Below, in pieces: positions 2,129 through 64,000 of a DNA stretch of 64,000 nt. Position 1 is the first letter of the stretch. Each line of letters begins with the position of its first letter. The DNA is from Candidatus Bipolaricaulota bacterium. Its GTDB lineage: Bacteria; Patescibacteriota; Patescibacteriia; UBA11705; DATKZF01. The position numbers were made by a program, and so were the translations under genes. The stretch spans positions 69,751 to 133,750 of the forward strand of contig DATKZF010000002.1 in the NCBI GenBank assembly GCA_035528115.1, in the 5' to 3' direction. The notes beneath the pieces were generated by a model, which was not told the DNA's origin, ran no database searches, and worked only from the letters and a program-made list of their open reading frames with translations.

Positions 2129-2229
2129 GGAAAATCATAATATATTATCACATTAAGTAAATTCTGTCAATAGATAAAAGAACTCATTTCAATTAAAAAA
2201 AGCTATTTCCCTTGGGAAAATAGCCTTTG

Positions 2230-3663: not shown

Positions 3664-3807
3664 GATACCTCCAGAAAACGGTTGCGGGTTTGCTGATTTT
3701 CCGACATCTTAACTTAATACAAAAGCTAAATTTAATCAAGCACAACAATAAAAACACCGAGAGTCATCCAACTCTCGGGTTTTTAAATATATAATTTTTT
3801 TTAATGT

Positions 3808-4590: not shown

Positions 4591-4640
4591 ACCTCCTGAT
4601 TATAACACAATATCGCATTCTTGGCAAGGTCGATTTATTT

Positions 4641-11188: not shown

Positions 11189-11265
11189 GGATCGGTGGTG
11201 TAGCTGGTTAACACGCCGCCCTGTCACGGCGGAGATCGCGGGTTCGAGTCCCGTCCGATCCGCCA
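11189..11265 (+). tRNA. tRNA-Asp (anticodon GTC), CCA encoded
   Basis: Cloverleaf read by hand. The acceptor is GGATCGG/CCGATCC, with D-stem GTGT/ACAC. The anticodon stem is CCGCC/GGCGG with loop CTGTCAC (U33, GTC, A37). The T-arm is GCGGG-TTCGAGT-CCCGT, the discriminator is G, and CCA follows. It is flanked by the complementary ATTCAGGCTG / CAGCCTGAAT leader-trailer pairing. Confidence 0.88.
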
Positions 11266-23142: not shown

Positions 23143-24240
23143 TTACTTATCGCTGCGCACGATAATGCTCTCGCCAACGCCCAAAATTGCCAAACTTATC
23201 AATAAAAAGCTGCCTCCGGAGCTCAGCAAAGGCAAAGAAATTCCGGTCACCGGCACCATGCCCATATTCATGCCTATATTAACGAAAATATGAAAAAAGA
23301 ATAATACGGTGATTCCGAGCAACGCGAACATGGCAAAGTCATTCGGCGCTTTTTTGGCCGCGATAACCAAACGGTAAAAAATCACGCCCCACAGCCCCAA
23401 CACCAGAAAAACTCCAAAAAAGCCAAGCTCTTCGGCAATAACCGCAAAAATGAAATCCGTCTGGCTCTCGGGTATAAAACGCAATTGGCTTTGCGAGCCG
23501 AAACCCAGCCCCCTACCCAAGAATTGCCCGGAACCGACGGCGATCATTGACTGAGCCACATTATAACCGCTGCCGAGCGGGTCGTTCTCCGGATGCATGA
23601 AAGTGAAAATCCTGTCTTTTTGATAATCCTTTAAAACGAAAAGCCAGCTCGACATAGAGATAACGCAAACAGCCAAAAGCAACACGGCAATATATCTTTT
23701 CTTCACTCCGGTCGTCAAAAGCAACACGAACCAAATGGCGACAAGCACCATCGCCGAGCCCAAATCCGGCTGAAGCAATATCAACATCACAAAAATCAAA
23801 ACGCCGGCCAAACTGACGATCACATGTTTTAATTGATTGAAATGCTGGTATCGATTGCTGAAAAATTTAGCCAAGAAAAAAATCAAAGCGATTTTCGCCA
23901 GCTCGACCGGCTGAAAACCGAAATTGCCAATGGCGAACCAACCGGTCGTGCCTCTGATATTCTCTCCGAAAATCAAAACCAAAAACAACAAAATCAAGGT
24001 TAAAATGTAAATCACGCGGCTGTATGAACGAAAAAAAATATAATTAAAAAAACTGAAAAAGAAAAAAACCGCCAAACCGATGCCCACGAAAATAAGCTGG
24101 CGATTGAATGCGGCCGCTCCCTCGCCTTCCTGATTCAAACTAACGCTGTAAATGGCGCTAAGCCCGAGCACGAGCAATAAAAAAATCGCCGTGAACAAAA
24201 TCCAGTCGAATTTTTTCAATTTTTGAATGATTCCGTACAT
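23143..24240 (-). CDS. rodA: SEDS-family peptidoglycan polymerase (RodA/FtsW-like); second copy in the window
   Basis: 365 aa, about 10 TM. GSGYNVAQSMIAVGSGQFLGRGLGFGSQ and IPESQTDFIFAVIAEELGFFG are conserved SEDS motifs. The other SEDS gene lies in the mur cluster at 50525. Confidence 0.8.
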   Translation of the reverse strand: MYGIIQKLKKFDWILFTAIFLLLVLGLSAIYSVSLNQEGEGAAAFNRQLIFVGIGLAVFFFFSFFNYIFFRSYSRVIYILTLILLFLVLIFGENIRGTTGWFAIGNFGFQPVELAKIALIFFLAKFFSNRYQHFNQLKHVIVSLAGVLIFVMLILLQPDLGSAMVLVAIWFVLLLTTGVKKRYIAVLLLAVCVISMSSWLFVLKDYQKDRIFTFMHPENDPLGSGYNVAQSMIAVGSGQFLGRGLGFGSQSQLRFIPESQTDFIFAVIAEELGFFGVFLVLGLWGVIFYRLVIAAKKAPNDFAMFALLGITVLFFFHIFVNIGMNMGMVPVTGISLPLLSSGGSFLLISLAILGVGESIIVRSDK

Positions 24241-42136: not shown

Positions 42137-42298
42137 ACGCGCGGCAACGGACGAATGTCCGTCGTAGAGACGCGCCGCGGCGCGTCTCTACACGGCGGCG
42201 AAATCGCCGCCGGCCGCGCGTTTTTATTTTTTAAAATAGAAGAACGCCGTCTGGATTGACCAAACGGCGCTCAAGAACTGCAGGAGGCGCCCACTCCC

Positions 42299-43012
42299 CT
42301 AGTACGGGTAGCAGGCGCCATCGTTGTCGCAGTACGTGCCGGTCGGACAGTCGTTGTCCGATCCGCAGGTGGCAGGCCGAGGCTCGGGCGCGCTCTGGTA
42401 ACAGAGCCCGTCCGAGGAGCAGAAGGTTCCGACCGGACAGTCGCTGGCCGACTGGCAGCCGGTCCGCGTGAGCGGGACACAGCTACCATCCGCGGCGCAG
42501 AAGTTGCCGACCGGGCAGTCGTAGTCCGAGATGCAACCGGCCTGCATCGCATAGCAGGCACCGTCAGCACCGCAGTAGAAACCGATATGACAGTCGGCAT
42601 CCACGCGGCAGCCTCCGACCGGACCGTCTTCGACCACGACCGCGACTTGCGAGACGCTGCAATAGCCGTCCCAGTCGCAGAACATGTCGGACCGGCAGTC
42701 CCAGTCGCTGGCACAGGGGTACAACCACTCACAGTAGTTGACCCCCGGGACAGCCATCGGCTGACAGTACATGTTGAACGGACAATCATCGTCCGTCCAA
42801 CAACCACCGTCTGTCGCGACCGCCTCGTCCACGTAGCCGGGCTCGCCGATGCAGGTGTTTCCCACATCGGTGCCGGTGCAGACCGTCCCGTACGGACAGT
42901 CGTAGTCGCTGTAGCACTGATCGTCGATCGGCTCGTGGTAGCCGACCGAGCCGAAGCAGCCGTTGAAGAAAGCGCACAGGACGCACAACGCCGCAAACAT
43001 CATGCTTTTCAT
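42299..43012 (-). CDS. Secreted cysteine-rich repeat protein with about 8 tandem DxDCPxGxxC(x)2-4DG(x)C modules; GC-rich
   Basis: The start is at the internal ATG at 43012, preceded by GGGGAG. The signal peptide is MKSMMFAALCVLCAFFNGCFG. Repeats such as SDYDCPYGTVCTG, TDDDCPFNMYCQP, SDWDCRSDMFCDWDGYC, VDADCHIGFYCGADGAC, SDYDCPVGNFCAADGSC, SASDCPVGTFCSSDGLC and SDNDCPTGTYCDNDGAC are read directly. Confidence 0.6.
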   Translation of the reverse strand: MKSMMFAALCVLCAFFNGCFGSVGYHEPIDDQCYSDYDCPYGTVCTGTDVGNTCIGEPGYVDEAVATDGGCWTDDDCPFNMYCQPMAVPGVNYCEWLYPCASDWDCRSDMFCDWDGYCSVSQVAVVVEDGPVGGCRVDADCHIGFYCGADGACYAMQAGCISDYDCPVGNFCAADGSCVPLTRTGCQSASDCPVGTFCSSDGLCYQSAPEPRPATCGSDNDCPTGTYCDNDGACYPY

Positions 43013-43196
43013 GATCTCTCCCCTTTTCTTTTCCCGCCTTGGCGGGATTTTGAAGTTCTTGCAATTCCAGTAAATCATTATATTATATCATATTTAATCA
43101 AAAAAGTCAATGATTGTAGTCTTTTTTTATCTAATTTTGGATAAAAAAAGCGAAATGCAAACATTCCGCAAACAAATAGAAATGGATAATGTATTA

Positions 43197-50524: not shown

Positions 50525-51643
50525 ATGATAAAAAAACAAAAAACATCTTATCATCGACCGGATTATATTCTGATCGGTTTGTTCGGGGCGATTTTATTGT
50601 TCGGCCTGATTATTTTAACATCCGCCAGCTCAGCGGCCGGTTTTGAAAAATTCAATGACAGCTATCATTTCATCAAACAACAGCTGTTTCACGGATTTTT
50701 GCCCGGCATTGTTTTATTGATTTTGCTCTCATTGATAAATTATCAGCGCTGGAAAAAATCCATCGGTCCGTTATTTATCGTTTCTTTAATACTGCTGCTC
50801 AGCGTTTTTCTGCCCGGAGTGGGAGTGGAATACGGCGGCGCCAAAAGTTGGATCGATCTGGGAGGATTTTCATTTCAACCTTCGGAATTGGTCAAACTGA
50901 CCTTTTTGATGTATTTGTCGATCTGGTTATCCAGAAGGAATAAAGATGATATCAAAAACTTTAAATCCGGATTTTTACCATTCATCTTCATCATCGGCAT
51001 TATCTCCATTTTAATGGCTTTGCAGCCGGATATCGGCACATTGTTTGTGATCCTGGCGTCGGCGATCATTGTCTATTTCGCCTCCGGCGCCAAGATATCT
51101 CATTTGACCACCATCGCGGCCGCCGGCGCGGGCTTAATTTTATTACTGATCAAAATCTCGCCGTATCGCAGCGCCCGACTAATGACCTTCCTTCACCCGG
51201 AACTGGATCCGCAGGGCATCGGTTATCATATCAATCAAGCGTTTTTGGCCATCGGTTCGGGAGGACTTTTCGGCCGAGGATTCGGCCATTCTCGCCAGAA
51301 ATTCCAATACCTGCCCGAAGTGACCGGCGATTCCATTTTCGCGATCGTTTGCGAAGAACTCGGCTATTTTTTCGCTCTTTTGCTGATCGGACTATTCATC
51401 GCGTTGTTTATAAGAATTTTAAAAATGGCTGACAAATGTTCGGATCCCTTCGGCCGTCTCTTGGCCATCGGCATCGGCAGTTGGTTCATCGTACAGGCGT
51501 TCGTCAATGTCGCGGCCATGGTCGGCCTGGCGCCTATGACCGGCGTTCCCCTGCCGCTCGTCAGTCACGGCGGCACGGCGTTGGCCATCAATATGGCGGC
51601 TTTTGGCATTTTGATCAATATTTCCAGGCAGACTAGAGCCTGA
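50525..51643 (+). CDS. ftsW: SEDS-family peptidoglycan glycosyltransferase FtsW
   Basis: 372 aa, about 10 TM. GIGYHINQAFLAIGSGGLFGRGFGHSRQK and LPEVTGDSIFAIVCEELG are present. Its position in the mur cluster supports the call. Confidence 0.85.
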   Translation: MIKKQKTSYHRPDYILIGLFGAILLFGLIILTSASSAAGFEKFNDSYHFIKQQLFHGFLPGIVLLILLSLINYQRWKKSIGPLFIVSLILLLSVFLPGVGVEYGGAKSWIDLGGFSFQPSELVKLTFLMYLSIWLSRRNKDDIKNFKSGFLPFIFIIGIISILMALQPDIGTLFVILASAIIVYFASGAKISHLTTIAAAGAGLILLLIKISPYRSARLMTFLHPELDPQGIGYHINQAFLAIGSGGLFGRGFGHSRQKFQYLPEVTGDSIFAIVCEELGYFFALLLIGLFIALFIRILKMADKCSDPFGRLLAIGIGSWFIVQAFVNVAAMVGLAPMTGVPLPLVSHGGTALAINMAAFGILINISRQTRA

Positions 51644-51929: not shown

Positions 51930-53105
51930 TTATTTAGGCGACATTTGCCTGAGTTTTTCAATAATACCCGGCAAAACTTTCAAAAATTGTCTGACTTCAA
52001 CTTCCGTGTTGAACCGACCGAGCGTTATTCTCAAACTGCCGTGAGACCATTCCGGTTTTATGCCCATGGCCGTGAGAACATGCGAGGAGGACAATGACCC
52101 GGAAGAACAAGCCGAGCCCGTGGAGACGGCAATGCCTTCCATGTCGAGAAGCATCAAAATGCTCTCGCCTTCCGCGCCTTTGAAACTGATATTCAAATTA
52201 TTCGGCAAACGATGTTCCAAACTGCCGTTTATTTTAGTGTCCTTTATTTTCAATATTTCTTCAGCCAGTTTGTCCTGCAAACTTTTCACTTTTTTTACGT
52301 TGGCCGCCCTGTTTTTTTCCGCCATCTCCATGGCTTTGGCCAAACCGACGTTGAGCGCCACGTTAATGGTGCCCGGTCTGAGGCCGCCTTCCTGATGGCC
52401 GCCAAAAGTGATCGGTGAAATTTTCGTGTTGTTTCTGATGAATAAAAGTCCCACGCCTTTGGGACCGAAAATTTTCTGCCCGGAAATCGTCAATAAATCG
52501 CACCCGAGGTAATTCACTTTGCAAGGCAAATAATTAAACGCTTGCGCCGCGTCCGTGTGCAAATAAATCGGCAAATCCTTGTCCGTTCTTTTTTCTCTGG
52601 CTTCGGCCACGATTTTGGCGATTTCTTCAATCGGCCACACAACGCCGATTTCATTATTGGCGTACATGATTGACACGAGCGCCGTATCCTTTTTTATTTT
52701 GGCTTTCAACTCATCCAATTTAATCATGCCTTCATGATCAACGCCGATAATATCAACTTCGCAACCTCTGTTTTTAAGTTCTTTGAATGTTTCCAAAACC
52801 GCCGGATGCTCAATGGCGCTGGTTATAAAATGAGGTTTTTTGTCTTTGAAACTTTCGTAAACGCCCAAAATAGCCAAGTTGTTGCTTTCGGTCGCGCCCG
52901 AAGTAAAAATGGCTTCCTTTGGCTGACATCCCAAAATATCGGCGATTTTTTCTCTAGCCTCGGTCAACGCGGCCTCGGCTTCCTGGCCGAAGGAATGAAT
53001 CGAGGAAGGATTGCCGAATTTTTCGGTAAAAAACGGCAGCATGGCCTCGAGCACTTGCGGATCGACCTTGGTGGTCGCCGCGTTATCGAAATAAATTCTA
53101 TTCAT
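51930..53105 (-). CDS. iscS: Cysteine desulfurase (NifS/IscS class)
   Basis: SGATESNNLAI, HTDAAQA and the PLP-Lys context SGQKIFGPKGVGLLFIR are present, as is the catalytic Cys loop SSGSACSSGS. Confidence 0.88.
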   Translation of the reverse strand: MNRIYFDNAATTKVDPQVLEAMLPFFTEKFGNPSSIHSFGQEAEAALTEAREKIADILGCQPKEAIFTSGATESNNLAILGVYESFKDKKPHFITSAIEHPAVLETFKELKNRGCEVDIIGVDHEGMIKLDELKAKIKKDTALVSIMYANNEIGVVWPIEEIAKIVAEAREKRTDKDLPIYLHTDAAQAFNYLPCKVNYLGCDLLTISGQKIFGPKGVGLLFIRNNTKISPITFGGHQEGGLRPGTINVALNVGLAKAMEMAEKNRAANVKKVKSLQDKLAEEILKIKDTKINGSLEHRLPNNLNISFKGAEGESILMLLDMEGIAVSTGSACSSGSLSSSHVLTAMGIKPEWSHGSLRITLGRFNTEVEVRQFLKVLPGIIEKLRQMSPK

Positions 53106-53108
53106 AAA

Positions 53109-53345
53109 TTAAACGGTTACGTTAATAACCTCAGTCACCTCTTTGATTTTTGTTTTCAAATTTTTCTCAACCAATTTTTGCAAAGTCAATGTAGCCATGG
53201 GACAATGCGCGCAATGTCCGGCCAATCTGACTTTGACTTGGCCGTTTGAGGCGTCGGCCTCGACCAATTCAATATCGCCTCCATCGGCTTGAAGATGCGG
53301 TCTTATTTCGTTGATGACTTGTTCGACTTGTTCTTTAAATTCCAT
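53109..53345 (-). CDS. NifU-like (Nfu C-terminal domain) Fe-S cluster carrier
   Basis: 78 aa with the GHCAHCPMA CxxC motif in an Nfu fold. Confidence 0.75.
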   Translation of the reverse strand: MEFKEQVEQVINEIRPHLQADGGDIELVEADASNGQVKVRLAGHCAHCPMATLTLQKLVEKNLKTKIKEVTEVINVTV

Positions 53346-53500
53346 ATTACGAATAATTAATTCTATTAGGATTAAGCTTGGTTTAGGTTTATCTGTTTGC
53401 TACGAATCGCTGCCGCTGATTAGCTTGACTTGACCTTGAAAGCTACGAATAATTAAATCTATTAGGATTAAGCTTGGTTTTTAATTTATGGTTTAGGCCC
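53346..53500 (+). repeat. Two copies (period about 98 bp) of TACGAATAATTAA(T/A)TCTATTAGGATTAAGCTTGGTTT between nfu and iscU
   Basis: Read directly at about 53346-53395 and 53441-53490. It is followed by the MITE-like element at 53522-53607. Confidence 0.7.
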
Positions 53501-53521
53501 TATTACGAATAAACAAAAGAA

Positions 53522-53607
53522 GTTGTCATCTCGACCGCCTGCCTGCCGGCAGGCAGGAAGTCGTCCGAAGCTGAGGCGAAGGATGACGAAGTGGAGAGAT
53601 CTCTTTT
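53522..53607. repeat. MITE-like palindromic element, copy 2, with nested CCTGCCTGCCGGCAGGCAGG palindrome
   Basis: GTTGTCATCTCGACCG[CCTGCCTGCCGGCAGGCAG]GAAGTCGTCCGAAGCTGAGGCGAAGGATGACGAAGTGGAGAGATCTC. Confidence 0.65.
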
Positions 53608-53627
53608 TGTAATCCTTAAAATCTCGC

Positions 53628-53996
53628 CTACTTGCCACTGACTCTATACTTGTCAATGCCATCTTTCAGCGCCTTGGTAGCCAGAATCGAACAATGATAT
53701 TTGACCGGCGGCAAATCGCCGAGTGAATCGACAATGTCTTTGTCAGTCACTTTCAAGGCGTCTTCGAGCGTTTTTCCTTTAACCAAATCTGTCATAATAG
53801 AAGACGTGGCGATCGCGGCCGCGCAGCCCAAAGTCTCGAATTTTATGTCATCGATTTTATCGTCCTTTATTTTCAAATAAATTTTCATAATATCGCCGCA
53901 ACGCATGTTCCCGGCCTCGCCAACCGCATCGGCATCGTCAATTGTGCCTTGATTATGCGGATTGGTGAAGTGCTCAAGTACTTTTTTTGAATACAT
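53628..53996 (-). CDS. iscU: Fe-S cluster assembly scaffold IscU/NifU N-terminal domain
   Basis: 122 aa. The three conserved Cys lie in GNMRCGDIMK, LGCAAAIATSS and KYHCSILA. Confidence 0.85.
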   Translation of the reverse strand: MYSKKVLEHFTNPHNQGTIDDADAVGEAGNMRCGDIMKIYLKIKDDKIDDIKFETLGCAAAIATSSIMTDLVKGKTLEDALKVTDKDIVDSLGDLPPVKYHCSILATKALKDGIDKYRVSGK

Positions 53997-54141: not shown

Positions 54142-55236
54142 CTAGTCGACGTCTGCCGCGGGGAATGCCCCGGACAAGAAGTTCTCGGACTCGGCCGCCT
54201 TGGCCAGGTCCTGCTCGATCAACTTCGCCCAGAGCTCGACGACCGTGAGCGGGAGCTCGAAGATGAACCGGTCGCCGCGCGCGACCATGATCTCCTCGAG
54301 CAGGCCGAGATCATCCGAATTGCCCAGCAATCCGACGGCTGTGACCGGGGTCGGGTCGCCGAAGACCGCCTTGATCTTCTCGCCGCGAATGAAGACGCCC
54401 GGAGCCACTTCGTAGCCGGGCCAGGTGTCCGTCGCCGCGGTCTGGTAGAACTGCTCGACGACCGCCCAGAAACCCTCTTCCTCGCGGAAGTACTGCTCAA
54501 CCGTCTTGAAGAAACGGCTGAGCAATCCCGGCATGAAGCGCTGGAGCAGCTGCTCCTTCGAGCAGAGCGCCTCGGACGCGGCTCCGAGCATGTGCACGTC
54601 GAGGGGGAGCAAGTGCGCGAGCTCGGGGTACTTCTCGAACACCGGCCGGAACCCGGCCGCGAGTTCGGAAGCGCTCAAGCCGAACGCCTTGTCGCCGAGC
54701 GGACCGGACTGCCGCACTTCCGTTTCCTTGAGGAAGAAGCATGGCCCGTTCAGAACCTCGAAGATGGGGTGGCCGAGCCACTCCTCCCCTGCCTTCTCGT
54801 GCAGGTAGCCGGACAGCCGAGGCAGGCCGGCCTTGATGAAGTCGGTGATCGCCGCCTCCACGCGGGCGAAGAACGCCCGCGTGCCGCCGTCGTAATGCGC
54901 TAGCAGCTGCCGGCGCCGCCACGCCTTGCGCACGTCCACTGCATGCGTTCCGCGCTCCTGCGGATCCTGCTCGCTCGAGACCTCCAGCATGCGTAGGGGA
55001 GTAGCCGCCGCCTTCTTCTCCGCCTTGGCCGCGCTGGGCGGCACGTCGATCTGGAACACCTTCGGCTCTGACTTCGGCCGAGCCTCTGGAGGAACATCGG
55101 TCTGAAAGCCGTTGCCCGCCGGTGCCGCCGCCGAGTCGAGCCGGACAGTATTCGGTCCCGGCGTGAAATGCACCGCCGGATCCACGGTCGTGCCCGGCTC
55201 CGAAAAAGAAACGCCCTTGCCCTTCTTGTCCGTCAT
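54142..55236 (-). CDS. GC-rich orphan hypothetical protein (364 aa), Ala/Pro-rich N-terminal region
   Basis: AGGAGG lies 6 nt upstream of the ATG. It is much more GC-rich than the flanks. No family recognised. Confidence 0.45.
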   Translation of the reverse strand: MTDKKGKGVSFSEPGTTVDPAVHFTPGPNTVRLDSAAAPAGNGFQTDVPPEARPKSEPKVFQIDVPPSAAKAEKKAAATPLRMLEVSSEQDPQERGTHAVDVRKAWRRRQLLAHYDGGTRAFFARVEAAITDFIKAGLPRLSGYLHEKAGEEWLGHPIFEVLNGPCFFLKETEVRQSGPLGDKAFGLSASELAAGFRPVFEKYPELAHLLPLDVHMLGAASEALCSKEQLLQRFMPGLLSRFFKTVEQYFREEEGFWAVVEQFYQTAATDTWPGYEVAPGVFIRGEKIKAVFGDPTPVTAVGLLGNSDDLGLLEEIMVARGDRFIFELPLTVVELWAKLIEQDLAKAAESENFLSGAFPAADVD

Positions 55237-55562
55237 GGTCTTCCTCCTGGTTGACGATTGATTATTCTCACAGTGATTCTCGATGAAATCGAGATATTAT
55301 AATAACAAATAACTCTTTTTTTGTCAATAATAAAAAAATGACCGAATTAAGCCACTTTTTTATCCTTTATAAACCTTTTACAATCATTATTTTCCGATCT
55401 CCCAATCGCATTTTACGCAGTTTTTCAGCGTCCGAGACGCTCGTTTCTTCATAAGGTCTGAAAACAACCCCATTTTCGGAATATTTCCTTGACATCTCTC
55501 AACTTTCTTATAAAATTACAACTAGGTGACCATTATTCATCTTCAGTGAAGGAGCGGTATCA

Positions 55563-55988
55563 ATGCCACTAAAATCTTTCATTTTCTACGGTTCACTCAA
55601 GGACCCAAGACGACAAATTGATATTTTGGGAAGTGCTCCGGTCGAAGTGATGGAAGGCTTTATTCACGGAGATATATATGTCGTCACGGATACAACAGAT
55701 CCGTTTGAGGTATTCGTATACCCCATTGTGATTCTCGGAGAGGAAAAACCATCTGTCCCAGCAATACTCGCCATGGTCGAGGTCTCCAACGACGGAGAAT
55801 ATAAAAAAATCATCGACAGTTTACTTAGGTTTGAAGGCGATCTCTTCCGAGTGTCAGAAGCTCCGTTCCACCGAATGGACGGATCTATTAGTTGCGGCAT
55901 CGTTTTTGTTGCTATAGAAAACGCAATTATGGATCATAGGGTACACAAACCAGATCCTCAATACATCTATAAGTTAGGGACTGGATAA
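55563..55988 (+). CDS. Gamma-glutamyl cyclotransferase-like (AIG2/GGCT-fold) protein
   Basis: 141 aa. The N-terminal FIFYGSLKD matches the (V/I)F(V)YG(S/T)L signature of the GGCT/AIG2 family, and the size fits the family. Confidence 0.45.
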   Translation: MPLKSFIFYGSLKDPRRQIDILGSAPVEVMEGFIHGDIYVVTDTTDPFEVFVYPIVILGEEKPSVPAILAMVEVSNDGEYKKIIDSLLRFEGDLFRVSEAPFHRMDGSISCGIVFVAIENAIMDHRVHKPDPQYIYKLGTG

Positions 55989-56012
55989 AGTGCGCCAAAC
56001 AAAGACGCACTT

Positions 56013-57032
56013 TTATAATTGAAAAAAATCTTTAAGTATTGGGACAAATGAGTATTTTTTTACTCTATCAACTAATTCATGTTCTATATTTTTATTGTTA
56101 CAATCTTTTATATAATGACTAATAAGATAAATAGCTTCTTTACTAGTTGTGTAAAGAAATCTTTCTGGAAAAAAATCAGGGTAACACAAATTATTAGGTA
56201 ATACCGGGATACATCCGCATGCAACAGCCTTCATGACTGCATAACCAAAATTCTCTTGTTTTGAACAACTTAAAACAATACGTGATTGAGCAAGTGTTTG
56301 AATATGCTCAGTTGAAGATTGCTCCGCAATAAATATTATATTTTTATATCGTTGAAGCATTTTAAAATATTTATTTTTTCTCATAATATTCATGGGCTGC
56401 GGGAAAGTTACCACGAACCCAACAGCAGGCAACTTTGATACGATGCAACAAAATTGCTCAATACCTTTATCGTCATCGAGCCTATGTGGAAATATTACAT
56501 CATATTTTATTTTATGTGATAAAAGACATTTCCTAAAAGCATCCATTCCCCATGGTGAAACCTTTATCTTTTTGCAAAAATCCTGAGGACACTCTTCAGC
56601 AAGAAACCTTGATGGCACATAAATCCTATCATAAATACTAGCCCAAGCGAATTCTGTTTTTTTTAACCACGGCCAAGAATATAAATCATTCGGCAAAAAA
56701 GAACCTCCATGCAACAATGCGCCCAATCGACAAATAATTCCTTGCTGAGTATAATAATATTTCAATAGATCAATGCCGGGATTAAAAAAATCCAAAAATA
56801 AAATTCGGTCAACTTTCCCTAATGCAATAAGTTTTTCAATGAGTTTAAATTGTCCAGTAATATAATCTGAGTCATCCAATATTCCTCCTTTAATGCAATT
56901 ATCAAGTGGTTTAATATATCCAACCATCGTTGCCTTTATACCAATATGTTTAATGGATAATTTCAATCCACGCACAATATCTTCAAATGAAGTTCCTAAA
57001 TAGTAAGGTGGGATAGCGATAATATTCTTCAT
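56013..57032 (-). CDS. Glycosyltransferase, GT-B fold (GT4-like)
   Basis: The C-terminal ENFGYAVMKAVACGCIPV matches the E-x7-E / ExFG nucleotide-sugar binding motif of GT4 enzymes. 339 aa. Confidence 0.65.
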   Translation of the reverse strand: MKNIIAIPPYYLGTSFEDIVRGLKLSIKHIGIKATMVGYIKPLDNCIKGGILDDSDYITGQFKLIEKLIALGKVDRILFLDFFNPGIDLLKYYYTQQGIICRLGALLHGGSFLPNDLYSWPWLKKTEFAWASIYDRIYVPSRFLAEECPQDFCKKIKVSPWGMDAFRKCLLSHKIKYDVIFPHRLDDDKGIEQFCCIVSKLPAVGFVVTFPQPMNIMRKNKYFKMLQRYKNIIFIAEQSSTEHIQTLAQSRIVLSCSKQENFGYAVMKAVACGCIPVLPNNLCYPDFFPERFLYTTSKEAIYLISHYIKDCNNKNIEHELVDRVKKYSFVPILKDFFQL

Positions 57033-57040
57033 AATATATT

Positions 57041-58108
57041 CTAAGAATACCTAAGAATATCCGCGGTATTAGCTAACACGTCTTTCGTCAAAATAATATC
57101 ATGCTGTTGGACCTGCGACAATGGCACGTCCTCTCTATATTCTCCTTTTTCCTTTCTTAATTCATTCATTAATAATGTTGGAATAGTAGCCGCTGTCATC
57201 CTCACGTTGAGTTCTAAGACTGATATCTTCTGGGTCTCCGATTCAACCATGAAATCAACACCAAAAAAGCCTTCATATCCTTCAAGGAAAATATTTATTT
57301 TACTTAGCACATCACGTAACTGTCTTAAAATTATGTCATCTAAAAATTCCAATGGCAATATTTTAGATCCTACAAAATATTTATTTTCCGCGATAAGTTG
57401 TTCTGAAAATCCAAAAATAATGGTGTCTCCCGATTCTCTATATCGCACACATTGTATGCTATGAGGTATTCCTAACGCGAGAGCTTCCCAATACCATTCA
57501 TCAGAAGTCTTTGAAAAAAGATTTCTAAAATTTAAATCACATTTTATTTCCGAGCTCAAAAACACCGTATACCCCCCGGATCCAAATCTTCTTTTAAGAA
57601 AACCTGGCTTATGAATGCACTCAAAATCATCCAACTCTTTCACATTATTAATTTTCTTCCATTCCGGAGTATAACTCTTTAATACATCCTTTTGAGATAA
57701 TTTATCATTATATTTTTTAAATTCCGAATAATTGTAATTAATGGATAGTTTGTTTTCCTTAGCTAATGCATCTGCCTTAGGATGAGGTATTGATACCCAG
57801 AGAGAAGAAATTTCATTCTTAGTTATTATGTCATCTTTTACTCTCTCAAATACCGACACTCTTGGATCCATGGCTTTTCTTACCGGCAATATGTTATTAC
57901 CATGATTATATTCAATACCTCCAAAATCATCATTTACTATCACATATTGCCCATCCAATATCCATGGTAAAAGATTTTCATACTTCCACATGGCCGGGAT
58001 TTCGTATAACATAGATTCGCTGATAGCACGAAAATCTGACAGATAAAGCGTCCGTTTATTGCAAAGAAAAGGAATTTCTGATGGAATTAACTGTTTTGTT
58101 AGAATCAT
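57041..58108 (-). CDS. ATP-grasp domain ligase
   Basis: LKRRFGSGGYTVF (the Gly-rich ATP loop) and GVDFMV...ELNVRMT (C-terminal Mg/ATP site) are typical of ATP-grasp carboxylate-amine ligases. Confidence 0.55.
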   Translation of the reverse strand: MILTKQLIPSEIPFLCNKRTLYLSDFRAISESMLYEIPAMWKYENLLPWILDGQYVIVNDDFGGIEYNHGNNILPVRKAMDPRVSVFERVKDDIITKNEISSLWVSIPHPKADALAKENKLSINYNYSEFKKYNDKLSQKDVLKSYTPEWKKINNVKELDDFECIHKPGFLKRRFGSGGYTVFLSSEIKCDLNFRNLFSKTSDEWYWEALALGIPHSIQCVRYRESGDTIIFGFSEQLIAENKYFVGSKILPLEFLDDIILRQLRDVLSKINIFLEGYEGFFGVDFMVESETQKISVLELNVRMTAATIPTLLMNELRKEKGEYREDVPLSQVQQHDIILTKDVLANTADILRYS

Positions 58109-60063
58109 AAATAATGTATATAAAATTTTTTAAAGTTTATTTGTTTACCGAGCCAGTCTATATCAGGATCAATAGTCCTGAATATAAATAAATCAGAAGA
58201 TGAACTATACTCCGACGAAGACCTATCAATTGCAAGACTGTCGAGAAAACGATCAGCTCTTTTTCTCTCACTGAAATGCATTGGTAATTTATACTGACTG
58301 AAATTCCTTCTTATTTCAATCAAATACACCCCTGCGCGAGAAAGGATCTGTTGCAATTTCAACAAATTTTTCCCTATCATCGTTTGATTTAAAATAACAT
58401 AAAATTCTTTTACATTGTTATTCTTTACAAGCATCCTAAGGCCAGCAAAAATAAATGCCAAAGCACCATATATAGTATACGGCGGATCAGTAATAAATGT
58501 CTGAACTTCCGGGAAACCATCCGCCTTAATTATCTTCCTAATGTCAAATTTTATAACTTTAAATCGTGGAGAGGCCTTTTTAATAATTTTTGTTATATTA
58601 TCGTCTTTTTCTATAATAACAGGGTAAGCCCAAAATTCATTAATAAATTCTAAACTTACCAAGTCATCATCTCCTATTATGCCAAACTTTAAATATTCAG
58701 TAAAAGGGTAGCGTTCTTTAAATAAATCAAAACGTCGTTTACGTGACGCAAAATCACAAGGGAATTGATTTAAATCACAATTTGGAACAAAAGATGGATT
58801 CTCTATTAATTCAAAAAAATCTTTTTTTGTAAAATGAAAATTGAATATTTTTTTCACCTTACCGTTCTTTTCAACCTTGACTATTTCATTCTTTATTCCC
58901 ACATCAATAAGAACGCCTATATTGTCAAAATCCGCTGAACTATTCTTAATAAACTCATCAACATTATTACTGTTTTGTAAATTCCTCATTAAACAAGCAA
59001 AATCCATCTTTTCAATCATGTTATTTTTTCGCCAAGATGAAACTGTTTTCCTATCAGACAATTGTATATCTAAGGGTATCAGCCTGATATAATCCTCATA
59101 TGCTTCTTCTATTCTAAAATCATAATGAATAGGCTTTAATTTTTCTAAAACCGTCCTCCTCTGCATTGGTTTTCCAGAAAATGTGTTTATCACGTGGAAC
59201 GAAAAATATCCTCTTTCAATTAATGCTAAAAAGTATTCAACAAGATTGCTCTGTTGATTTATTCCTGCACGGTGAGACACATGAATCACTAAAAAATCAT
59301 TCATAAGCATAAAACGATATCCTAATTCATATAATCTGAACATCAAAAAATCATCTTCAAATCCATAACCCGAATAATTCGGAAATCCTCCCAGTTTTTT
59401 AAAAATATCCTTTTTGCAGAATCCGAAATTAGCGATAAATGTTGACTGCTTAATATTTTGAAAAAATGGATCACGAAACAAAGCAGGAGGAAGTCCGGCA
59501 TTATGTTTTAAAAACCCAATTTCTCCGTTCTCCATTTTATTAAGTATCTTTTTTGTATTTTTGGGAAACCATCCCTGCCTTGTCCACAATCGTTTTGCGC
59601 CGTATCCATAATCGAAATTCCTCGAAAGACAAAAAATTTTCTGAAAAGCGCTATTATCTAAAATTATTGTATCATCATCAACAAAAACAAGCAGATTGCT
59701 ACTTGCCCTCTCAGCGCCGATATTCCTTGCTTTACCATAACCATATGATTGCTTGTTATTTATAAGCGAAAAGGCTATGGGCGTTGGCCTTCTTTTGTTC
59801 AATTCACGAACCGTGTCTCGTATTAATGGGATGTTATTTTTTTTATGGTGACTATTTTCAATTAAAATTACCTCAAAATATTTAAATTTTTGTGCAAAAA
59901 TTGCAGTCAAACAATGAAGGATACAATTTCCTTTCGCTTTCCCTGGGTCACAGGAAAGGATAATACAAGAAAGTTTAATTATTTTTTTTCCCATACAGAT
60001 CATAACAAGCACTTTCAATACAATCCACGTAAACTCATATAATAAAGAATAGCGAACTTTCAT
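58105..60063 (-). CDS. Fusion protein: N-terminal GT2 glycosyltransferase plus C-terminal GDDD/DPPY-motif domain (DUF43/BpsA-like aminopropyltransferase- or amino-methyltransferase-like)
   Basis: GT2 motifs: CIILSCDPG, GYGKARNIG, VFVDDDT (DxD) and GFEDDF. The C-terminal roughly 250 aa carry KFGIIGDDDLVSLEF and FITDPPYTIYG. The ATGA start overlaps the stop of the ATP-grasp gene. Confidence 0.6.
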   Translation of the reverse strand: MKVRYSLLYEFTWIVLKVLVMICMGKKIIKLSCIILSCDPGKAKGNCILHCLTAIFAQKFKYFEVILIENSHHKKNNIPLIRDTVRELNKRRPTPIAFSLINNKQSYGYGKARNIGAERASSNLLVFVDDDTIILDNSAFQKIFCLSRNFDYGYGAKRLWTRQGWFPKNTKKILNKMENGEIGFLKHNAGLPPALFRDPFFQNIKQSTFIANFGFCKKDIFKKLGGFPNYSGYGFEDDFLMFRLYELGYRFMLMNDFLVIHVSHRAGINQQSNLVEYFLALIERGYFSFHVINTFSGKPMQRRTVLEKLKPIHYDFRIEEAYEDYIRLIPLDIQLSDRKTVSSWRKNNMIEKMDFACLMRNLQNSNNVDEFIKNSSADFDNIGVLIDVGIKNEIVKVEKNGKVKKIFNFHFTKKDFFELIENPSFVPNCDLNQFPCDFASRKRRFDLFKERYPFTEYLKFGIIGDDDLVSLEFINEFWAYPVIIEKDDNITKIIKKASPRFKVIKFDIRKIIKADGFPEVQTFITDPPYTIYGALAFIFAGLRMLVKNNNVKEFYVILNQTMIGKNLLKLQQILSRAGVYLIEIRRNFSQYKLPMHFSERKRADRFLDSLAIDRSSSEYSSSSDLFIFRTIDPDIDWLGKQINFKKFYIHYL

Positions 60064-60066
60064 GAA

Positions 60067-60384
60067 CTAATAGTGAAACTTTAGCACTCTCCCTTTTCTC
60101 AGCAAAAAGCATAGCTTAAATAGATTCGCTACTTTTAACTGACGAATTGTTTTTTTAGAACAAGTAACTAAGTCGATGTGTATGTAAGAATTTTCGGGCC
60201 AGACATGTACAGCAATATGGCTTTCCTCTAATATAAAAACGATTGAACTGCCTTGAGGATGAAATCCATGAACTGTTTTTTTTACAATATGCAAACCTAA
60301 TAGAGAAACAAACATCTCTATTCTGGACATAAGTTCTCTTTTTTTAAAAATATTGGGATCATCGCCAAAACCTTCTAGCACCAT
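60067..60384 (-). CDS. speH: S-adenosylmethionine decarboxylase proenzyme (pyruvoyl-dependent, small bacterial/archaeal SpeH/SpeD type)
   Basis: 105 aa. FILEESHIAVHVWPE matches the self-processing E|S site and HTWPE signature of class-1 AdoMetDC. Confidence 0.78.
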   Translation of the reverse strand: MVLEGFGDDPNIFKKRELMSRIEMFVSLLGLHIVKKTVHGFHPQGSSIVFILEESHIAVHVWPENSYIHIDLVTCSKKTIRQLKVANLFKLCFLLRKGRVLKFHY

Positions 60385-60483
60385 ATGACAAGTAATGTGT
60401 GTATGCTCGCCCCATTGTTTTTCCCAATTATCTACTGGACTAAAATTATATATTTGGATTGTCTTATTTGGACATGATATAGA

Positions 60484-60852
60484 TTAAACAATTATCCATG
60501 ATGATAACACTTCTCCCATATATCCCTCACACACTGAAACTGAAACAGTTTTAAAATTAAAATCAGCAGCGATCTTTTTCTTTATAAATATTGCTATATT
60601 CTCCGCCGTTGTAGGCTCGTTCCAGCCATGCTCGTTAAAAACATCATTAACGTGTCTGTGATCAAAAATTCCTATAATGTCTTTGATTTTTTTAAAATCT
60701 GCAATCATGCCATTCTTTAATTCGCCCGATTCAATTTCTACTTTCACAAGATAAGTATGCCCATGCAGTCGCGCACAATCCTTTGAAATCAAATTACTGC
60801 TGTCGGGCAGTGTGTGAGAAGCATGGAAAAAATCTGATACTACAAGCTTCAT
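60484..60852 (-). CDS. 6-pyruvoyl-tetrahydropterin synthase family protein (QueD/PTPS-like)
   Basis: 122 aa. The Zn-binding CARLHGHTY (CxxxHGH) and second motif D..H.HV (FDHRHVNDV) are present. Confidence 0.75.
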   Translation of the reverse strand: MKLVVSDFFHASHTLPDSSNLISKDCARLHGHTYLVKVEIESGELKNGMIADFKKIKDIIGIFDHRHVNDVFNEHGWNEPTTAENIAIFIKKKIAADFNFKTVSVSVCEGYMGEVLSSWIIV

Positions 60853-60895
60853 AAAAAATATAACTAATTTAAAAAAATTATTTTCTAAATTTTAC

Positions 60896-61705
60896 TTATA
60901 AACCCTTTACAATCATCATTTTCCGATCGCCCAGCCTCATTTTTCTTGACTTTTCCGCGTCAGGCGTTTCCGTCTCTTCATAAGGCCGGAAAACAATGCC
61001 GTTTTCCGAATACAAATCATGAACGGCCGAGAGCAAATTATCGTATTTATATTTGAATTTCAATCCTTTTCTGGTGCCCGGATCATTGGTGATAAATTCG
61101 TTTCTGTCATATCCGCGAACGACCAACATGTGAAACAGCGGGCCCGGAGCGGTAAAATTGGGATTATCCAAGTCGCGGCCCGAAGCCGGCAAAATGATCA
61201 AATGTCCCTTGACCAATTCTTCCTTTATTCTTTGTTCCGAAACATCGCTTGATATTTCAACATCCAATTTAAAATATTCCTTGGCCATTCGAGCCACCTC
61301 AGCCACGTTGGTGTCGGTGTACAAGCCGAGATTGGTCGTTTCCCAAGCCACCAATTTTTTCAATTCCTCATCCATAATGGCGGCGTCCAGCGGCTGTTTG
61401 GCGAAATATTTGTATGCCGTGATCAAGCTGGCTTCTTCGCACGCTTCCTGATACGGCAATTCCCAATTGCCAAAAGGCGCTTGCGACGCGAACGCCACGT
61501 CCAAATCAAAAGTGGCGGGCAATGAAACCTCTTGCTCAGCCGGGGCATGCTCAAGCGTCGCGGGAGATTCTACCGTTGTTTCTGGCGTCGCTTCGGTTGT
61601 TAATGCCTCGTTTTCAAGATTGTTCGCAAGCAATGAAATTCGGCCGCAACCGGACAAAATTATCAATAAAAACGGAAAAAACGCGATTTTTGTTAATTTA
61701 TTCAT
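60896..61705 (-). CDS. Lipoprotein (lipobox LSGC) with possible papain-like/C39-like peptidase domain
   Basis: MNKLTKIAFFPFLLIILSGCG is a signal peptide plus lipobox. QAPFGNWELPYQEACEEASL with a downstream His (VKGHLIIL) is weakly reminiscent of C39-like peptidases. This is low confidence. Confidence 0.4.
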   Translation of the reverse strand: MNKLTKIAFFPFLLIILSGCGRISLLANNLENEALTTEATPETTVESPATLEHAPAEQEVSLPATFDLDVAFASQAPFGNWELPYQEACEEASLITAYKYFAKQPLDAAIMDEELKKLVAWETTNLGLYTDTNVAEVARMAKEYFKLDVEISSDVSEQRIKEELVKGHLIILPASGRDLDNPNFTAPGPLFHMLVVRGYDRNEFITNDPGTRKGLKFKYKYDNLLSAVHDLYSENGIVFRPYEETETPDAEKSRKMRLGDRKMMIVKGL

Positions 61706-62344: not shown

Positions 62345-64000
62345 TCAGCCGCCGCTCGGCGAGATGTCGCCGGTCGAGGTCAGACTGAACTTGATGCCGC
62401 ATGTGTACGCGCTGCCGTCGAAACCGCAGCGGCGAAACGGTCCGACATCATCGTAGAGCGAATCTCCATACTGCGCCCAAGCGCCCGACTCGCTCATGTA
62501 CGAGACGCTATACTGGCCGGCCAAGGTATTGGCGGGCAAAAGCAGACGGTAATAGCCGTCCGCGTCGATTGCCATTTGCATGCCGGATTGAAGCGACCAG
62601 CCCATGTCCGGCAATTCTCCAACCGCGAAAGCCGCGTTGGGCTTTCCGGTCAAGTATTGGCTGTTAAAGGCCAAACAGCGCTGACCGCAGGATTTCGCCG
62701 CCCAAAAATCGGGCGTCTGATCCGGCGAAGACTGAGGCGGCAATGACGAAGAAAAATCTTCGTCCGTTTGACCATCGCAGTTATTGTCCGCGTTGTCCTC
62801 CACTTCGGCGCTCGGCAAGACTTCATCTTGGATCGTCTGCCAGACGCCGTTGTCGCAATACTCGATTCGAGGCCGGCATTCTCCCACCCCGATCGTCTCG
62901 CTCGCTTCGGAATACGAAGTTTGCATCTGATGATCCACGCATTCTTCGTCGTCTTGCGGCGGATCGGGATATTGATTCCAGCCGTCGTCGGTCAGGCCGT
63001 CGCAGTCATTGTCTTGCCCGTCGTTTTGCTCCGGCTCGGGCAGGACCTCGTCTTGAGAAATGACCCAGTGTCCGCTTTGGCAGACCGAAATCTCCGGCCG
63101 GCAAGGACCGATGCCGAAGGTTTCGATCGATCCGGAGTAGGCGCTGAAAATTTGACCTTCTTCGCATTCGACAGGTGTCGAAAAATCCTCGTCCGTTTCG
63201 CCGTCGCAGTCATTGTCGAGGCCGTCCGCCGTTTCCGAGATTGGCAAGACCTCGTTTCTGATCTGATGCCAATCTCCGGCAAAACATTCTTCGATCTTGG
63301 TCCGGCACGAACCGACGTTCACCGTCTCGCTTGAACCGGAATAGGTTTCCAGCTCATCCCCATCGAGGCATGAGTTGCCTCCTCCTTCGGGATTTGCGAA
63401 ACACCGGTTGATGTTCTCGACGGTGATCAGGTCGCCGAAACCGGCGACGCTCATGAGCATTTGAGCCGCGTCCACGGTCCAGATCTGACCGCTCGCGTAG
63501 CCCATTTGCGAAAATACTTGAAAATTCGCGAACGGTCTGGCCACTCCATTGCCTGAAATGACAAAGACCGCGCCCTGGCCAAAGCCCTGATTGGTCAGAG
63601 CCGGTTCGGGTTTGACCAGCCGTCCGTCTCTGATGTGCAGAATGCCACCCTCATCGCAAACGGACAGCTTTTGCTGACCTTGCGACGCGGACAGCACGGG
63701 CATGTCTTCGGGCAGATAGCCCCAGCTTTCCGCGGCCAGCGCGGAAGCGAACTTGTAGATCATGCAGCCCTGGTCATTGGCCGATTGCTTTTCCAGCAGG
63801 TAATGCCAGCTGGCGCCGGCCACGCGAAAGACTTCGCGATAAGGCTGCCAGTCAACCGTCCAAGATTCCGGATAGCAGTCGAGCTCTGTCTGACTGACCT
63901 CCAGAATCAAGTTGGAGTCGAAGCCGTGAGCCAGGAAGACTTCCCAATTCACGACCCAGTGCTTGGCGCCATCGAGGAGAACGTAGACCTTGGGCTCGAG
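62345..64000 (-). CDS. Large GC-rich secreted/surface protein with three tandem MopE-like putative metal-binding repeats (D-x-D-N-D-C-D-G-x-T-D-E). 5' end beyond window
   Basis: The 5' end runs beyond the window, as the reading frame stays open to 64000. Three repeats are read directly: ...CRTKIEECFAGDWHQIRNEVLPISETADGLDNDCDGETDEDF, ...CRPEISVCQSGHWVISQDEVLPEPEQNDGQDNDCDGLTDDGW and ...CRPRIEYCDNGVWQTIQDEVLPSAEVEDNADNNCDGQTDEDF. Confidence 0.6.
   Translation of the reverse strand, partial: LEPKVYVLLDGAKHWVVNWEVFLAHGFDSNLILEVSQTELDCYPESWTVDWQPYREVFRVAGASWHYLLEKQSANDQGCMIYKFASALAAESWGYLPEDMPVLSASQGQQKLSVCDEGGILHIRDGRLVKPEPALTNQGFGQGAVFVISGNGVARPFANFQVFSQMGYASGQIWTVDAAQMLMSVAGFGDLITVENINRCFANPEGGGNSCLDGDELETYSGSSETVNVGSCRTKIEECFAGDWHQIRNEVLPISETADGLDNDCDGETDEDFSTPVECEEGQIFSAYSGSIETFGIGPCRPEISVCQSGHWVISQDEVLPEPEQNDGQDNDCDGLTDDGWNQYPDPPQDDEECVDHQMQTSYSEASETIGVGECRPRIEYCDNGVWQTIQDEVLPSAEVEDNADNNCDGQTDEDFSSSLPPQSSPDQTPDFWAAKSCGQRCLAFNSQYLTGKPNAAFAVGELPDMGWSLQSGMQMAIDADGYYRLLLPANTLAGQYSVSYMSESGAWAQYGDSLYDDVGPFRRCGFDGSAYTCGIKFSLTSTGDISPSGG

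Follow-up and report, generated by a model that had tools for sequence, protein, structure and literature searches.

A conserved gene cassette with a BpsA-like domain in candidate phyla radiation bacteria and its possible relation to 7-deazaguanines

Few uses of decarboxylated S-adenosylmethionine (dcSAM) are known outside polyamine synthesis. A stretch of 64,000 nucleotides of contig DATKZF010000002.1 (in the following: the window) contains, between 55563 and 61705, seven consecutive open reading frames (ORFs), of which the first lies on the + strand and the other six on the − strand. Among them is a gene for a predicted S-adenosylmethionine decarboxylase (AdoMetDC) next to a gene in which a glycosyltransferase family 2 (GT2) domain is joined to a domain resembling N4-bis(aminopropyl)spermidine synthase (BpsA). 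The locus raises the question which molecule would accept the aminopropyl group of dcSAM and what the genes around this pair contribute. An original prediction, made from the DNA sequence, regarded the seven genes as one locus in which a sugar- or lipid-linked acceptor is aminopropylated, and left a QueD-like and a gamma-glutamylcyclotransferase (GGCT)-like protein without obvious role. Comparison with related loci confirms that the genes form a functional unit, and a 7-deazaguanine, probably 7-aminomethyl-7-deazaguanine (preQ1), is a tentative candidate for the acceptor.

Conservation and enzymes of the cassette

The seven ORFs, their strands and their near-abutting boundaries are as originally described. 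The ATP-grasp gene overlaps the fusion gene by 4 nt, and the gaps amount to 8 nt between the glycosyltransferase family 4 (GT4) and ATP-grasp genes, 99 nt between the AdoMetDC and QueD genes and 43 nt between the QueD gene and a lipoprotein-like gene. Pfam bears out the domain calls GT4, ATP-grasp, GT2, BpsA/DUF43-like, AdoMetDC and PTPS. Contigs representing one genome per species as well as metagenome contigs were scanned with the family alignment, which gave 77 loci, 53 of them non-redundant and informative (designated by L numbers where needed); each was inspected within ±10 kb of the core genes. The arrangement is far beyond chance, as the same gene set recurs in these 53 loci with 34-52% identity, and the homologues are not scattered or unlinked, linkage being kept in more than 50 loci; in all, some 59 related contexts contain the tightly linked cassette. 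The GT2-BpsA fusion is represented by at least 51 database clusters with 34-52% identity, all of about 620-640 amino acids (aa). It is complete in 35 of the 53 loci, while 17 contain a standalone BpsA-like protein of about 340 aa, the size of authentic BpsA, and GT2 is missing or separately encoded in about one-third. The gene that accompanies the BpsA-like one most constantly is GT4 (45 loci, its absences being mostly due to truncated contigs), followed by ATP-grasp (37 loci) and the family of p141, the 141-aa product of the first gene (14 loci); 32 ORFs with an AdoMetDC domain were counted across the mapped loci. The typical order is BpsA-like, ATP-grasp, GT4 and a small gene, the last usually divergent. 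One contig (L027) carries both a standalone BpsA-like gene (1688-2701) and a full GT2-BpsA gene (3583-5463) with p141 and AdoMetDC between them, and thus paralogous transferases within a single cassette.

The fusion gene (58105-59994, − strand, ORF to 60063) was first described with 652 aa. Both domains stand, with Pfam Glycos_transf_2 at residues 46-145 and BpsA_C at residues 462-631 (56.5 bits, cut-off 27) of this ORF; the length probably does not, since the family consensus and the NCBI protein HUT22157.1 agree on Met24 as the most likely start, giving 629 aa. The AlphaFold model of the protein reaches a mean predicted local distance difference test (pLDDT) of 91.5. Its top Foldseek matches are the BpsA structures of Thermococcus kodakarensis and Thermus thermophilus (5XNC, 5XNH, 6J27; 335-349 columns, E about 1e-13), followed by GT-A enzymes. 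As the crystal structures are matched over about 340 residues, the fusion holds a complete BpsA with N-domain and Rossmann domain, and the best matches in both sequence and fold are BpsA (PF01861) rather than an N6-adenine or N5-glutamine methyltransferase. The N-terminal half is predicted to adopt a GT-A fold, whose nearest relatives include the wall-teichoic-acid and capsule enzymes TarP, TarS, RmlT and K4CP.

In BpsA, the GDDD motif (Asp159/Asp160) positions the aminopropyl group of dcSAM, Glu259 binds the polyamine, and a flexible C-terminal acidic cluster acts as aminopropyl carrier in a ping-pong mechanism; the determinants compared here are those of a 2026 review of this enzyme (PMC12979288). 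GDDD or GEDD, aligned with the GDDD of the T. kodakarensis enzyme, is present in 49 of 52 cassette members, and E..RA is kept. Of the residues lining the acceptor site, Asp225, which is the aspartate of DPP, and Tyr290 show no variation, while Tyr316 has no position in the alignment. By contrast, Glu259 in the ITRRES motif of BpsA is replaced by V-I-L-N-P-x-M, and the acidic carrier tail is absent, the C-terminus of the family reading YSSSS[ND]LY[IV]F...IYxHY with 2-6 acidic residues among the last 30. Two further changes are specific for the family, namely DPPE to DPPY (46 of 47 members) and HQFDQ to NQFPC with an invariant cysteine. The form (D/N)PP(Y/F) is the motif of amino-methyltransferases which stack an aromatic or nucleobase substrate beside its amine, and from this precedent DPPY can be read as a hint of alkylation at the exocyclic amine of a nucleobase.

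These exchanges suggest that the BpsA-like domain has kept a competent donor site whereas its acceptor pocket has been re-tooled. The protein is a homologue of BpsA but probably not an orthologue, and another acceptor is expected, because Glu259 and the acidic tail are lost, a GT2 domain is usually attached and GT4 is its regular and ATP-grasp its usual company. The taxa differ as well: the cassette family occurs mostly in candidate phyla radiation (CPR) and other metagenome-assembled genomes (MAGs) rather than in the thermophiles from which BpsA is known. Genomic coupling to AdoMetDC, on the other hand, is common to both.

The AdoMetDC gene (60067-60384, − strand) encodes a small pyruvoyl protein of the SpeH/class 1 type. 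It scores 66 bits against Pfam AdoMet_dc (cut-off 25) and 63 bits against TIGR03330, which is under the cut-off of 75.65, and its best NCBIfam match is the Bacillus subtilis-type AdoMetDC. The ESH self-cleavage motif, a WP motif and the downstream catalytic cysteine are invariant in the 32 AdoMetDC domains, which suggests catalytic competence. In 15 of the 53 loci as well as in L081 and L084, ATP-grasp and AdoMetDC form one fusion protein with the AdoMetDC domain at its C-terminal end, while elsewhere AdoMetDC is a free neighbour. A Phycisphaerales locus encodes, as a single case, a 727-aa AdoMet_dc::GT2::BpsA_C protein with the AdoMet_dc domain (108 bits) at the N-terminus. Owing to these physical fusions to ATP-grasp or GT2-BpsA, the earlier proposal that dcSAM feeds the fusion enzyme is well supported. 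The AdoMetDC family also contains neofunctionalised arginine and ornithine decarboxylases, and for this reason the substrate is deduced from the fusion to the BpsA-like domain, for which AdoMetDC is the predicted dcSAM supplier.

The ATP-grasp gene (57041-58108, − strand; Pfam ATP-grasp_3) encodes a predicted carboxylate-amine ligase. Its best NCBIfam match is MfnD, the tyramine-L-glutamate ligase (24 bits, E 1.8e-5); with an equivalog cut-off of 400 bits, the likeness is one of family level. MfnD is the ATP-grasp enzyme of methanofuran biosynthesis that gamma-glutamylates a small primary amine. The GSGGYTVF loop and the LE.N.R motif are kept throughout the cassette family and point to a competent enzyme, which is predicted to gamma-glutamylate an amine, with gamma-glutamate as the probable ligated acid.

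This prediction is of interest in view of p141 (55563-55988, + strand), whose gene is divergent from the operon. Its assignment as a gamma-glutamylamine cyclotransferase (GGACT) by sequence was rejected: neither Pfam (including PF06094-type membership) nor NCBIfam gave a match, a PDB profile search returned noise only, and the hhalign probability against GGACT proteins of other loci was 0.8%, which is not significant. The GGCT-like call of the original prediction is borne out by predicted structure only. The model (pLDDT 85) matches in Foldseek nothing but the GGCT fold of AIG2-like proteins, ChaC2 and GGCT (2G0Q, 6KY1, 3CRY, 2RBH, 5HWI; probability 1.0, TM 0.57-0.64). The motifs YG[ST]L and [FY]EGxL[YF] are invariant, with Y9-G10 and E91-G92 unchanged in 14 sequences. 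A hidden Markov model (HMM) of p141 also reaches a GGACT-family member in L020 with an E-value of 4.5e-7 in a small database. A profile search places the family in 14 loci and, in addition, in L079 and L081; ATP-grasp accompanies it every time. The ENA/JGI calls of p141 (120 aa, P0052/P0061) start at Leu22 and lose the YGSL motif, which the NCBI protein HUT22154.1 (141 aa) keeps. From its modelled fold, p141 is a predicted gamma-glutamyl(amine) cyclotransferase.

In other loci the slot of p141 is occupied by Pfam GGACT proteins (L022, L062, L064, L006, L007, L020, L082) or by GATase1/Peptidase_C26 proteins (L016, L019, L021), and it is filled only where ATP-grasp is present. Loci without ATP-grasp (L012/L080, L039, L043, L045, L071, L078) have an acetyltransferase of the GNAT family and an Amidohydro_2-like gene instead. 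By analogy, these sets may be read as two versions of a transient amine acylation, either with a gamma-glutamyl group put on by ATP-grasp and taken off by GGCT or C26 proteins, or with an acetyl group put on by GNAT and removed by the amidohydrolase. The GGCT protein, earlier without obvious role, thus belongs to a conserved slot that pairs with ATP-grasp, and along with QueD it tells most about the locus. In L062 (13426-14844) GGACT and an APH-family kinase are fused to a protein of 472 aa, and they are adjacent genes in L064 (5961-7389). This coupling suggests a phosphorylation step tied to gamma-glutamyl removal.

The GT4-type (GT-B) glycosyltransferase (56013-57032, − strand) is a marginal match to Pfam Glycos_transf_1 (28.9 bits, cut-off 26.4). 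A conserved QExFGY...K stands in place of the EX7E motif, the first glutamate being kept and the second position being lysine. The nearest relatives with solved structure, although weak matches, are BshA enzymes, which act on small-molecule acceptors.

Queuosine-precursor genes and a possible 7-deazaguanine acceptor

The neighbours of the cassette offer a clue to the acceptor. A Pfam bulk scan compared 149 ORFs lying no farther than 1.3 kb from the core with 149 control ORFs at a distance of 1.3-9 kb. The most frequent near families are Vut_1 (9), additional GT2 (9), NUDIX (8), GNAT (7), radical S-adenosylmethionine (SAM) proteins (6, four with Fer4_12), APH (5), GGACT (5) and QueF (3); Hist_deacetyl occurs twice. 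Vut_1 (9 versus 0), GGACT (5 versus 0) and QueF (3 versus 0) are absent from the distant set, which holds none of the queuosine-precursor families, while NUDIX, also common in the distant flanks (4 of 149), was rejected as a specific partner. Queuosine-pathway genes flank the cassette in about one-third of the loci and account for 14 of 81 immediate neighbours (binomial P about 1e-15 at a generous background of 0.8%, ignoring shared ancestry among the loci).

The Vut_1 proteins of nine loci score 113-129 bits against TIGR00697, the queuosine precursor transporter (cut-off 51), and their genes often abut or overlap the BpsA-like gene within a few bases. In L038, L056 and L057 the BpsA-like gene is preceded by QueF at a distance of 12-28 nt. 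Downstream of the cassette of L015, and on the same strand, QueD, QueE and FolE are found, all above their cut-offs; this is the only locus with all three. QueE-like radical-SAM genes abut the cassette in L006, L007, L020 and L082, and TGT together with QueH flanks it in L012/L080 only. Radical-SAM genes of L069 and L003/L014 that were matched by the QueE HMM proved to be SPASM-type proteins and were left out of the counts. Radical-SAM/SPASM genes (L003/L014 5977-6990, L083 5016-5912, L081 3751-4911 and 13163-14338) go with those cassette variants (Bacteroidetes-type loci) that are without ATP-grasp or stand beside integrases. Four contexts were fetched after the hypothesis had been formed: L081, which holds the closest relative of the window's fusion, has QueF directly upstream, and L082 has the QueE-like gene.

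The window itself contains a QueD-type 6-carboxytetrahydropterin synthase gene (60484-60852, − strand), which adjoins the AdoMetDC gene and shares the low GC content of the island (0.358). The product scores 73 bits against Pfam PTPS, its best NCBIfam match is QueD (TIGR03367; 67.9 bits, below 89.25), and NCBI names it 6-carboxytetrahydropterin synthase. The CxxxHGH zinc/catalytic motif is present in the form DCARLHGH. By tblastn no PTPS homologue was found beside the cassettes of the first 23 loci. QueD, for which the original prediction saw no role, is nevertheless counted with the cassette after all because of the wider pattern of queuosine genes around it. QueD is the only member of the FolE/QueD/QueE(/QueC) core next to the tailoring genes of the window, and TGT, QueA and QueC were not among 20 ORFs sampled elsewhere in it.

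Taken with the motif changes, this neighbourhood makes plausible, though tentatively so, a cytoplasmic pathway by which a 7-deazaguanine, probably preQ1, is aminopropylated, glycosylated and transiently gamma-glutamylated. The best candidate is preQ1, since it offers a primary aminomethyl amine and QueF is coupled to the cassette. Substrate would come from salvage via YhhQ/Vut_1 and then QueF, or de novo via FolE, QueD and QueE. AdoMetDC would supply dcSAM, and the BpsA-like domain would move the aminopropyl group onto an amine of the deazaguanine. The ATP-grasp ligase would cap an amine with a gamma-glutamyl group, and one or two sugars would be added by GT4 and, where present, GT2. Finally p141 would take off the gamma-glutamyl group as 5-oxoproline, according to a protecting-group logic like that of BtrJ and BtrG in butirosin synthesis. 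In the sister variant, the GNAT and amidohydrolase-like proteins would replace the ATP-grasp/GGCT pair and an acetyl group would be put on and off. The product could remain a free metabolite or be a base inserted later by TGT, or the chemistry could take place on tRNA; the free base is favoured over tRNA-bound preQ1 or queuosine (Q).

Several points weigh against this pathway. About two-thirds of the loci have no queuosine gene nearby, many of their contigs being short, and two of the four contexts fetched later also have none. QueC occurs in no cassette neighbourhood and TGT in one locus only (L012/L080). The QueD of the window and the QueF and QueE-like neighbours score under the NCBIfam equivalog cut-offs, and the binomial P-value leaves out shared ancestry, though gene arrangements differ between loci. 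Functions are assigned throughout by sequence, predicted structure and gene context; the acceptor is deduced solely from the gene neighbourhood and the motif change, and the ligated acid and the sugar donors are likewise deduced, as is the order of steps. Finally, an Rfam scan of the window and 13 loci at gathering thresholds found tmRNA and tRNAs but no preQ1 riboswitch; since riboswitches of this kind are of small size and CPR bacteria may do without them, their lack gives no support without being evidence against the proposal.

Parts of such a pathway are known from other systems. In the synthesis of the butirosin side chain, BtrJ is an ATP-grasp gamma-glutamyl ligase and BtrG a gamma-glutamyl cyclotransferase with GGCT fold. 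The cassette resembles it in having an ATP-grasp/GGCT-fold pair inside a glycoside-building cluster, consistent with transient protection of an amine. However, it lacks the carrier protein, the pyridoxal phosphate-dependent decarboxylase and the aminocyclitol genes, and the likeness is one of logic rather than of sequence orthology. In the clusters for the 7-deazapurines huimycin, dapiramicin, roseomycin A, toyocamycin and tubercidin, tailoring enzymes are encoded, as here, beside genes for the biosynthesis of 7-cyano-7-deazaguanine (preQ0) or 7-carboxy-7-deazaguanine (CDG). A GT4-type glycosyltransferase (PF13439) acts on the 7-deazaguanine base in huimycin synthesis, and in roseomycin an amide is formed on CDG. 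In contrast to the cassette, these clusters are from actinomycetes and have the full FolE/QueD/QueE(/QueC) core, in place of which the cassette usually has the transporter and/or QueF, and neither AdoMetDC nor an aminopropyltransferase has been reported from any of them.

Maturation and decoration of Q (QueA, QTGAL/QTMAN, GluQRS) provide the same kind of decoration as proposed for the cassette. QueA attaches a SAM-derived moiety, the ribosyl group, to the aminomethyl nitrogen of preQ1, and Q is glycosylated in animals by GT2-family and GT4-family enzymes and glutamylated in bacteria by GluQRS. Unlike with QueA, the transfer of the SAM-derived group would fall to another protein family, the proposed donor is the aminopropyl group of dcSAM instead of the ribosyl group of SAM, and a tRNA substrate would be hypothetical. 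Full-text literature searches returned no paper that joins BpsA/DUF43, AdoMetDC or aminopropyl transfer to queuosine or 7-deazaguanines, and a 2026 genome-mining preprint on 7-deazapurine pathways makes no mention of such a module. The cassette combines known kinds of chemistry, a dcSAM aminopropyl-transfer module and 7-deazaguanine tailoring, and there is a realistic chance that it represents a new class of nucleobase modification. A BpsA-type enzyme with a re-tooled pocket, tied through gene fusions to AdoMetDC, a glycosyltransferase and an ATP-grasp ligase, would be a new branch of aminopropyl chemistry. The product might be a new tRNA nucleoside or a new 7-deazaguanine glycoside, the latter maybe acting against preQ1 riboswitches or TGT as an antimetabolite. 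In both cases a function would be gained for several families now called hypothetical or misnamed, namely the p141 family and the proteins that carry the annotation 'bis-aminopropyl spermidine synthase family'.

Alternative products

A product of polyamine type, such as a branched, glycosylated or gamma-glutamylated polyamine or an amino-sugar conjugate, would make the queuosine neighbours coincidental or Vut_1 a paralogue with different cargo. Such a product seems unlikely, although not to be neglected. NCBI labels the fusion 'bis-aminopropyl spermidine synthase family protein', and its fold and donor site are indeed those of BpsA. GNAT and Hist_deacetyl proteins (7 and 2, respectively) are among the near neighbours, and the loci with no queuosine gene in view make up two-thirds of the total. 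Gamma-glutamyl-polyamine cycles and acetyl-polyamine cycles, the latter with GNAT and HDAC-like deacetylases, are known in polyamine metabolism. It is the acceptor side that speaks against a polyamine: Glu259 and the acidic carrier tail are lost and DPPE has become DPPY. Furthermore, the cassette has no conserved gene for a spermidine synthase, an arginine/ornithine decarboxylase or an agmatinase, the obligatory GT4 would have no explanation, and neither would the QueF, QueD, QueE and FolE neighbours with their contrast between near and distant flanks.

The same chemistry could instead be performed on tRNA, with preQ1 at the wobble position (after TGT) or Q being decorated to a new nucleoside of the queuosine family, comparable to eukaryotic galactosyl- and mannosyl-Q and bacterial glutamyl-Q. 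A hypermodification of this kind, an N-aminopropylated and glycosylated preQ1 or Q which is transiently gamma-glutamylated and reaches the wobble position of CPR tRNAs directly or via TGT, is regarded as rather unlikely. In eukaryotes, Q is glycosylated by a GT2-family enzyme (QTGAL/B3GNTL1) and a GT4-family enzyme (QTMAN/GTDC1), and both families are encountered here, yet at E<=0.1 the cassette GT4 does not match the family of the QTMAN N-terminal domain. A point in favour is the basic character of the GT2-BpsA fusions (median isoelectric point 9.2), while the standalone BpsA-like and the ATP-grasp proteins are acidic (5.5-5.9) and the core proteins yielded no match to an RNA-binding domain. 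Enzymes that alkylate amino groups in nucleic acids typically have the DPPY motif, and ABC-F translation factors are encoded near six loci. TGT and QueH flank L012/L080, but TGT is seen this once only, and the tight partners, transporter and QueF, are enzymes of the free base. Acylation on and off by GGCT, GNAT and amidohydrolase proteins is typical of small-molecule pathways as well. If such a hypermodification exists, it would provide the first case of a nucleobase aminopropylated from dcSAM, and bacteria would have their own counterpart of the glycosyl-queuosine of eukaryotes.

The acceptor of the original prediction, a sugar- or lipid-linked one in a surface glycan, teichoic-acid-like polymer or glycolipid, is very unlikely: in spite of two glycosyltransferases, GT2 folds near TarP, TarS, RmlT and K4CP, a lipoprotein gene upstream and MraY and FtsW/RodA genes within 10 kb, the core proteins are predicted to be soluble with no transmembrane segments, and the cassette has no conserved neighbour of the type of a flippase, polyprenyl-phosphate transferase, ABC exporter or polymerase. 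Moreover, GT2 is missing or separate in about one-third of the loci, the lipoprotein gene lacks conservation and resembles the host in GC content, and the conserved accessory genes encode cytosolic small-molecule enzymes.

Two further candidates concern the role of the cassette as a whole. Carriage by phages, plasmids or viruses would favour a function in DNA modification or anti-restriction; searches of phage, plasmid and viral collections turned up no copy of the cassette, and this idea was rejected. PADLOC models of defence systems gave two chance-level matches to the core proteins (E 0.004-0.006), and a known anti-phage defence system was rejected on this result.

Hosts, mobility and surroundings

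The hosts are mostly CPR bacteria, namely Saccharibacteria, Peribacteria/Peregrinibacteria, Gracilibacteria, Paceibacterota and Komeilibacteria, with scattered occurrences in Gammaproteobacteria, Bacteroidetes, Acetivibrio and Phycisphaerales MAGs. CPR bacteria (Patescibacteria) have a minimal, salvage-dependent metabolism, and the cassette bears on the question of their tRNA wobble modification and small molecules. It appears to be mobile because its distribution is patchy, the GC content in the window is low and integrases or serine recombinases lie near several loci. Large serine recombinases were seen near four loci (L059 608-1963, L017 3459-4670, L062 4935-6296, L006 19632-21260) and tyrosine integrases near two (L003 10277-11491, L083 10629-11867). 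A Y1 transposase (L084 10663-11088) interrupts the cassette after the ATP-grasp::AdoMetDC gene.

In the window, the block from GT4 to QueD has a GC content of 0.32-0.36 compared with a window mean of 0.446 (cassette genes 0.316-0.341, QueD 0.358, p141 0.430, lipoprotein 0.459). From the low values, the cassette with QueD looks laterally acquired, whereas the lipoprotein gene with its host-like value does not. The latter gene (60896-61705, − strand; Pfam Peptidase_C39_2) lies directly upstream of the QueD gene and encodes a lipoprotein-like protein, as originally called, with a signal peptide, a Cys lipobox and a C39-like peptidase domain. Its place in the system, in contrast, was rejected: no homologue was found beside other cassettes, neither by tblastn in the first 23 loci nor in later locus maps, and it is regarded as a neighbour outside the cassette. 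Promoter-like sites lie at 55489-55516 on the side of p141 and at 61742-61714 upstream of the lipoprotein gene, which may share its promoter and be co-transcribed with the cassette.

Genes for ABC-F ATPases occur within a few kb of several cassettes (L004 14638-16140, L006 12659-14506, L007 11575-13422, L019 4441-6315, L048 13846-16002, L062 3768-4694, L082 9678-11501); their best NCBIfam match is 'ribosomal protection-like ABC-F', just below the cut-off. Five APH-family kinases and seven GNAT proteins are also among the near neighbours, and the combination resembles the self-resistance set of a producer of ribosome-targeting glycosides, but this could be a coincidence in small genomes.

Segments of high GC content (0.50-0.66) occur within the window of 0.44 GC at 54142-55236 (−), 62345-63952 (−), 1-4000 and 42271-43144. 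They include a 364-aa ORF without family match (GC 0.659) and ORFs at 1139-3663 without Pfam match. Cys-rich repeats are encoded by two further ORFs, one of 535 aa (GC 0.573) with metal-binding repeats like those of MopE and one of 259 aa with Dickkopf_N/DUF7107 repeats. The segments could encode secreted repeat proteins, or could stem from foreign DNA or a chimeric assembly. Housekeeping genes of the window comprise tmRNA, one tRNA, a NifS/NifU-type Fe-S pair, two FtsW/RodA paralogues, release factor RF-1, MraY, MiaA and the ribosomal proteins L1, L25 and L27 (coordinates of this context: 8664-9046 (+), 11189-11262 (+), 51930-53996 (−), 23143-24240 and 50525-51643). With its small set of genes and its proteins of the DUF5656 and DUF3048 families, the window looks CPR-like, although the label of the public record is 'Bipolaricaulota'.

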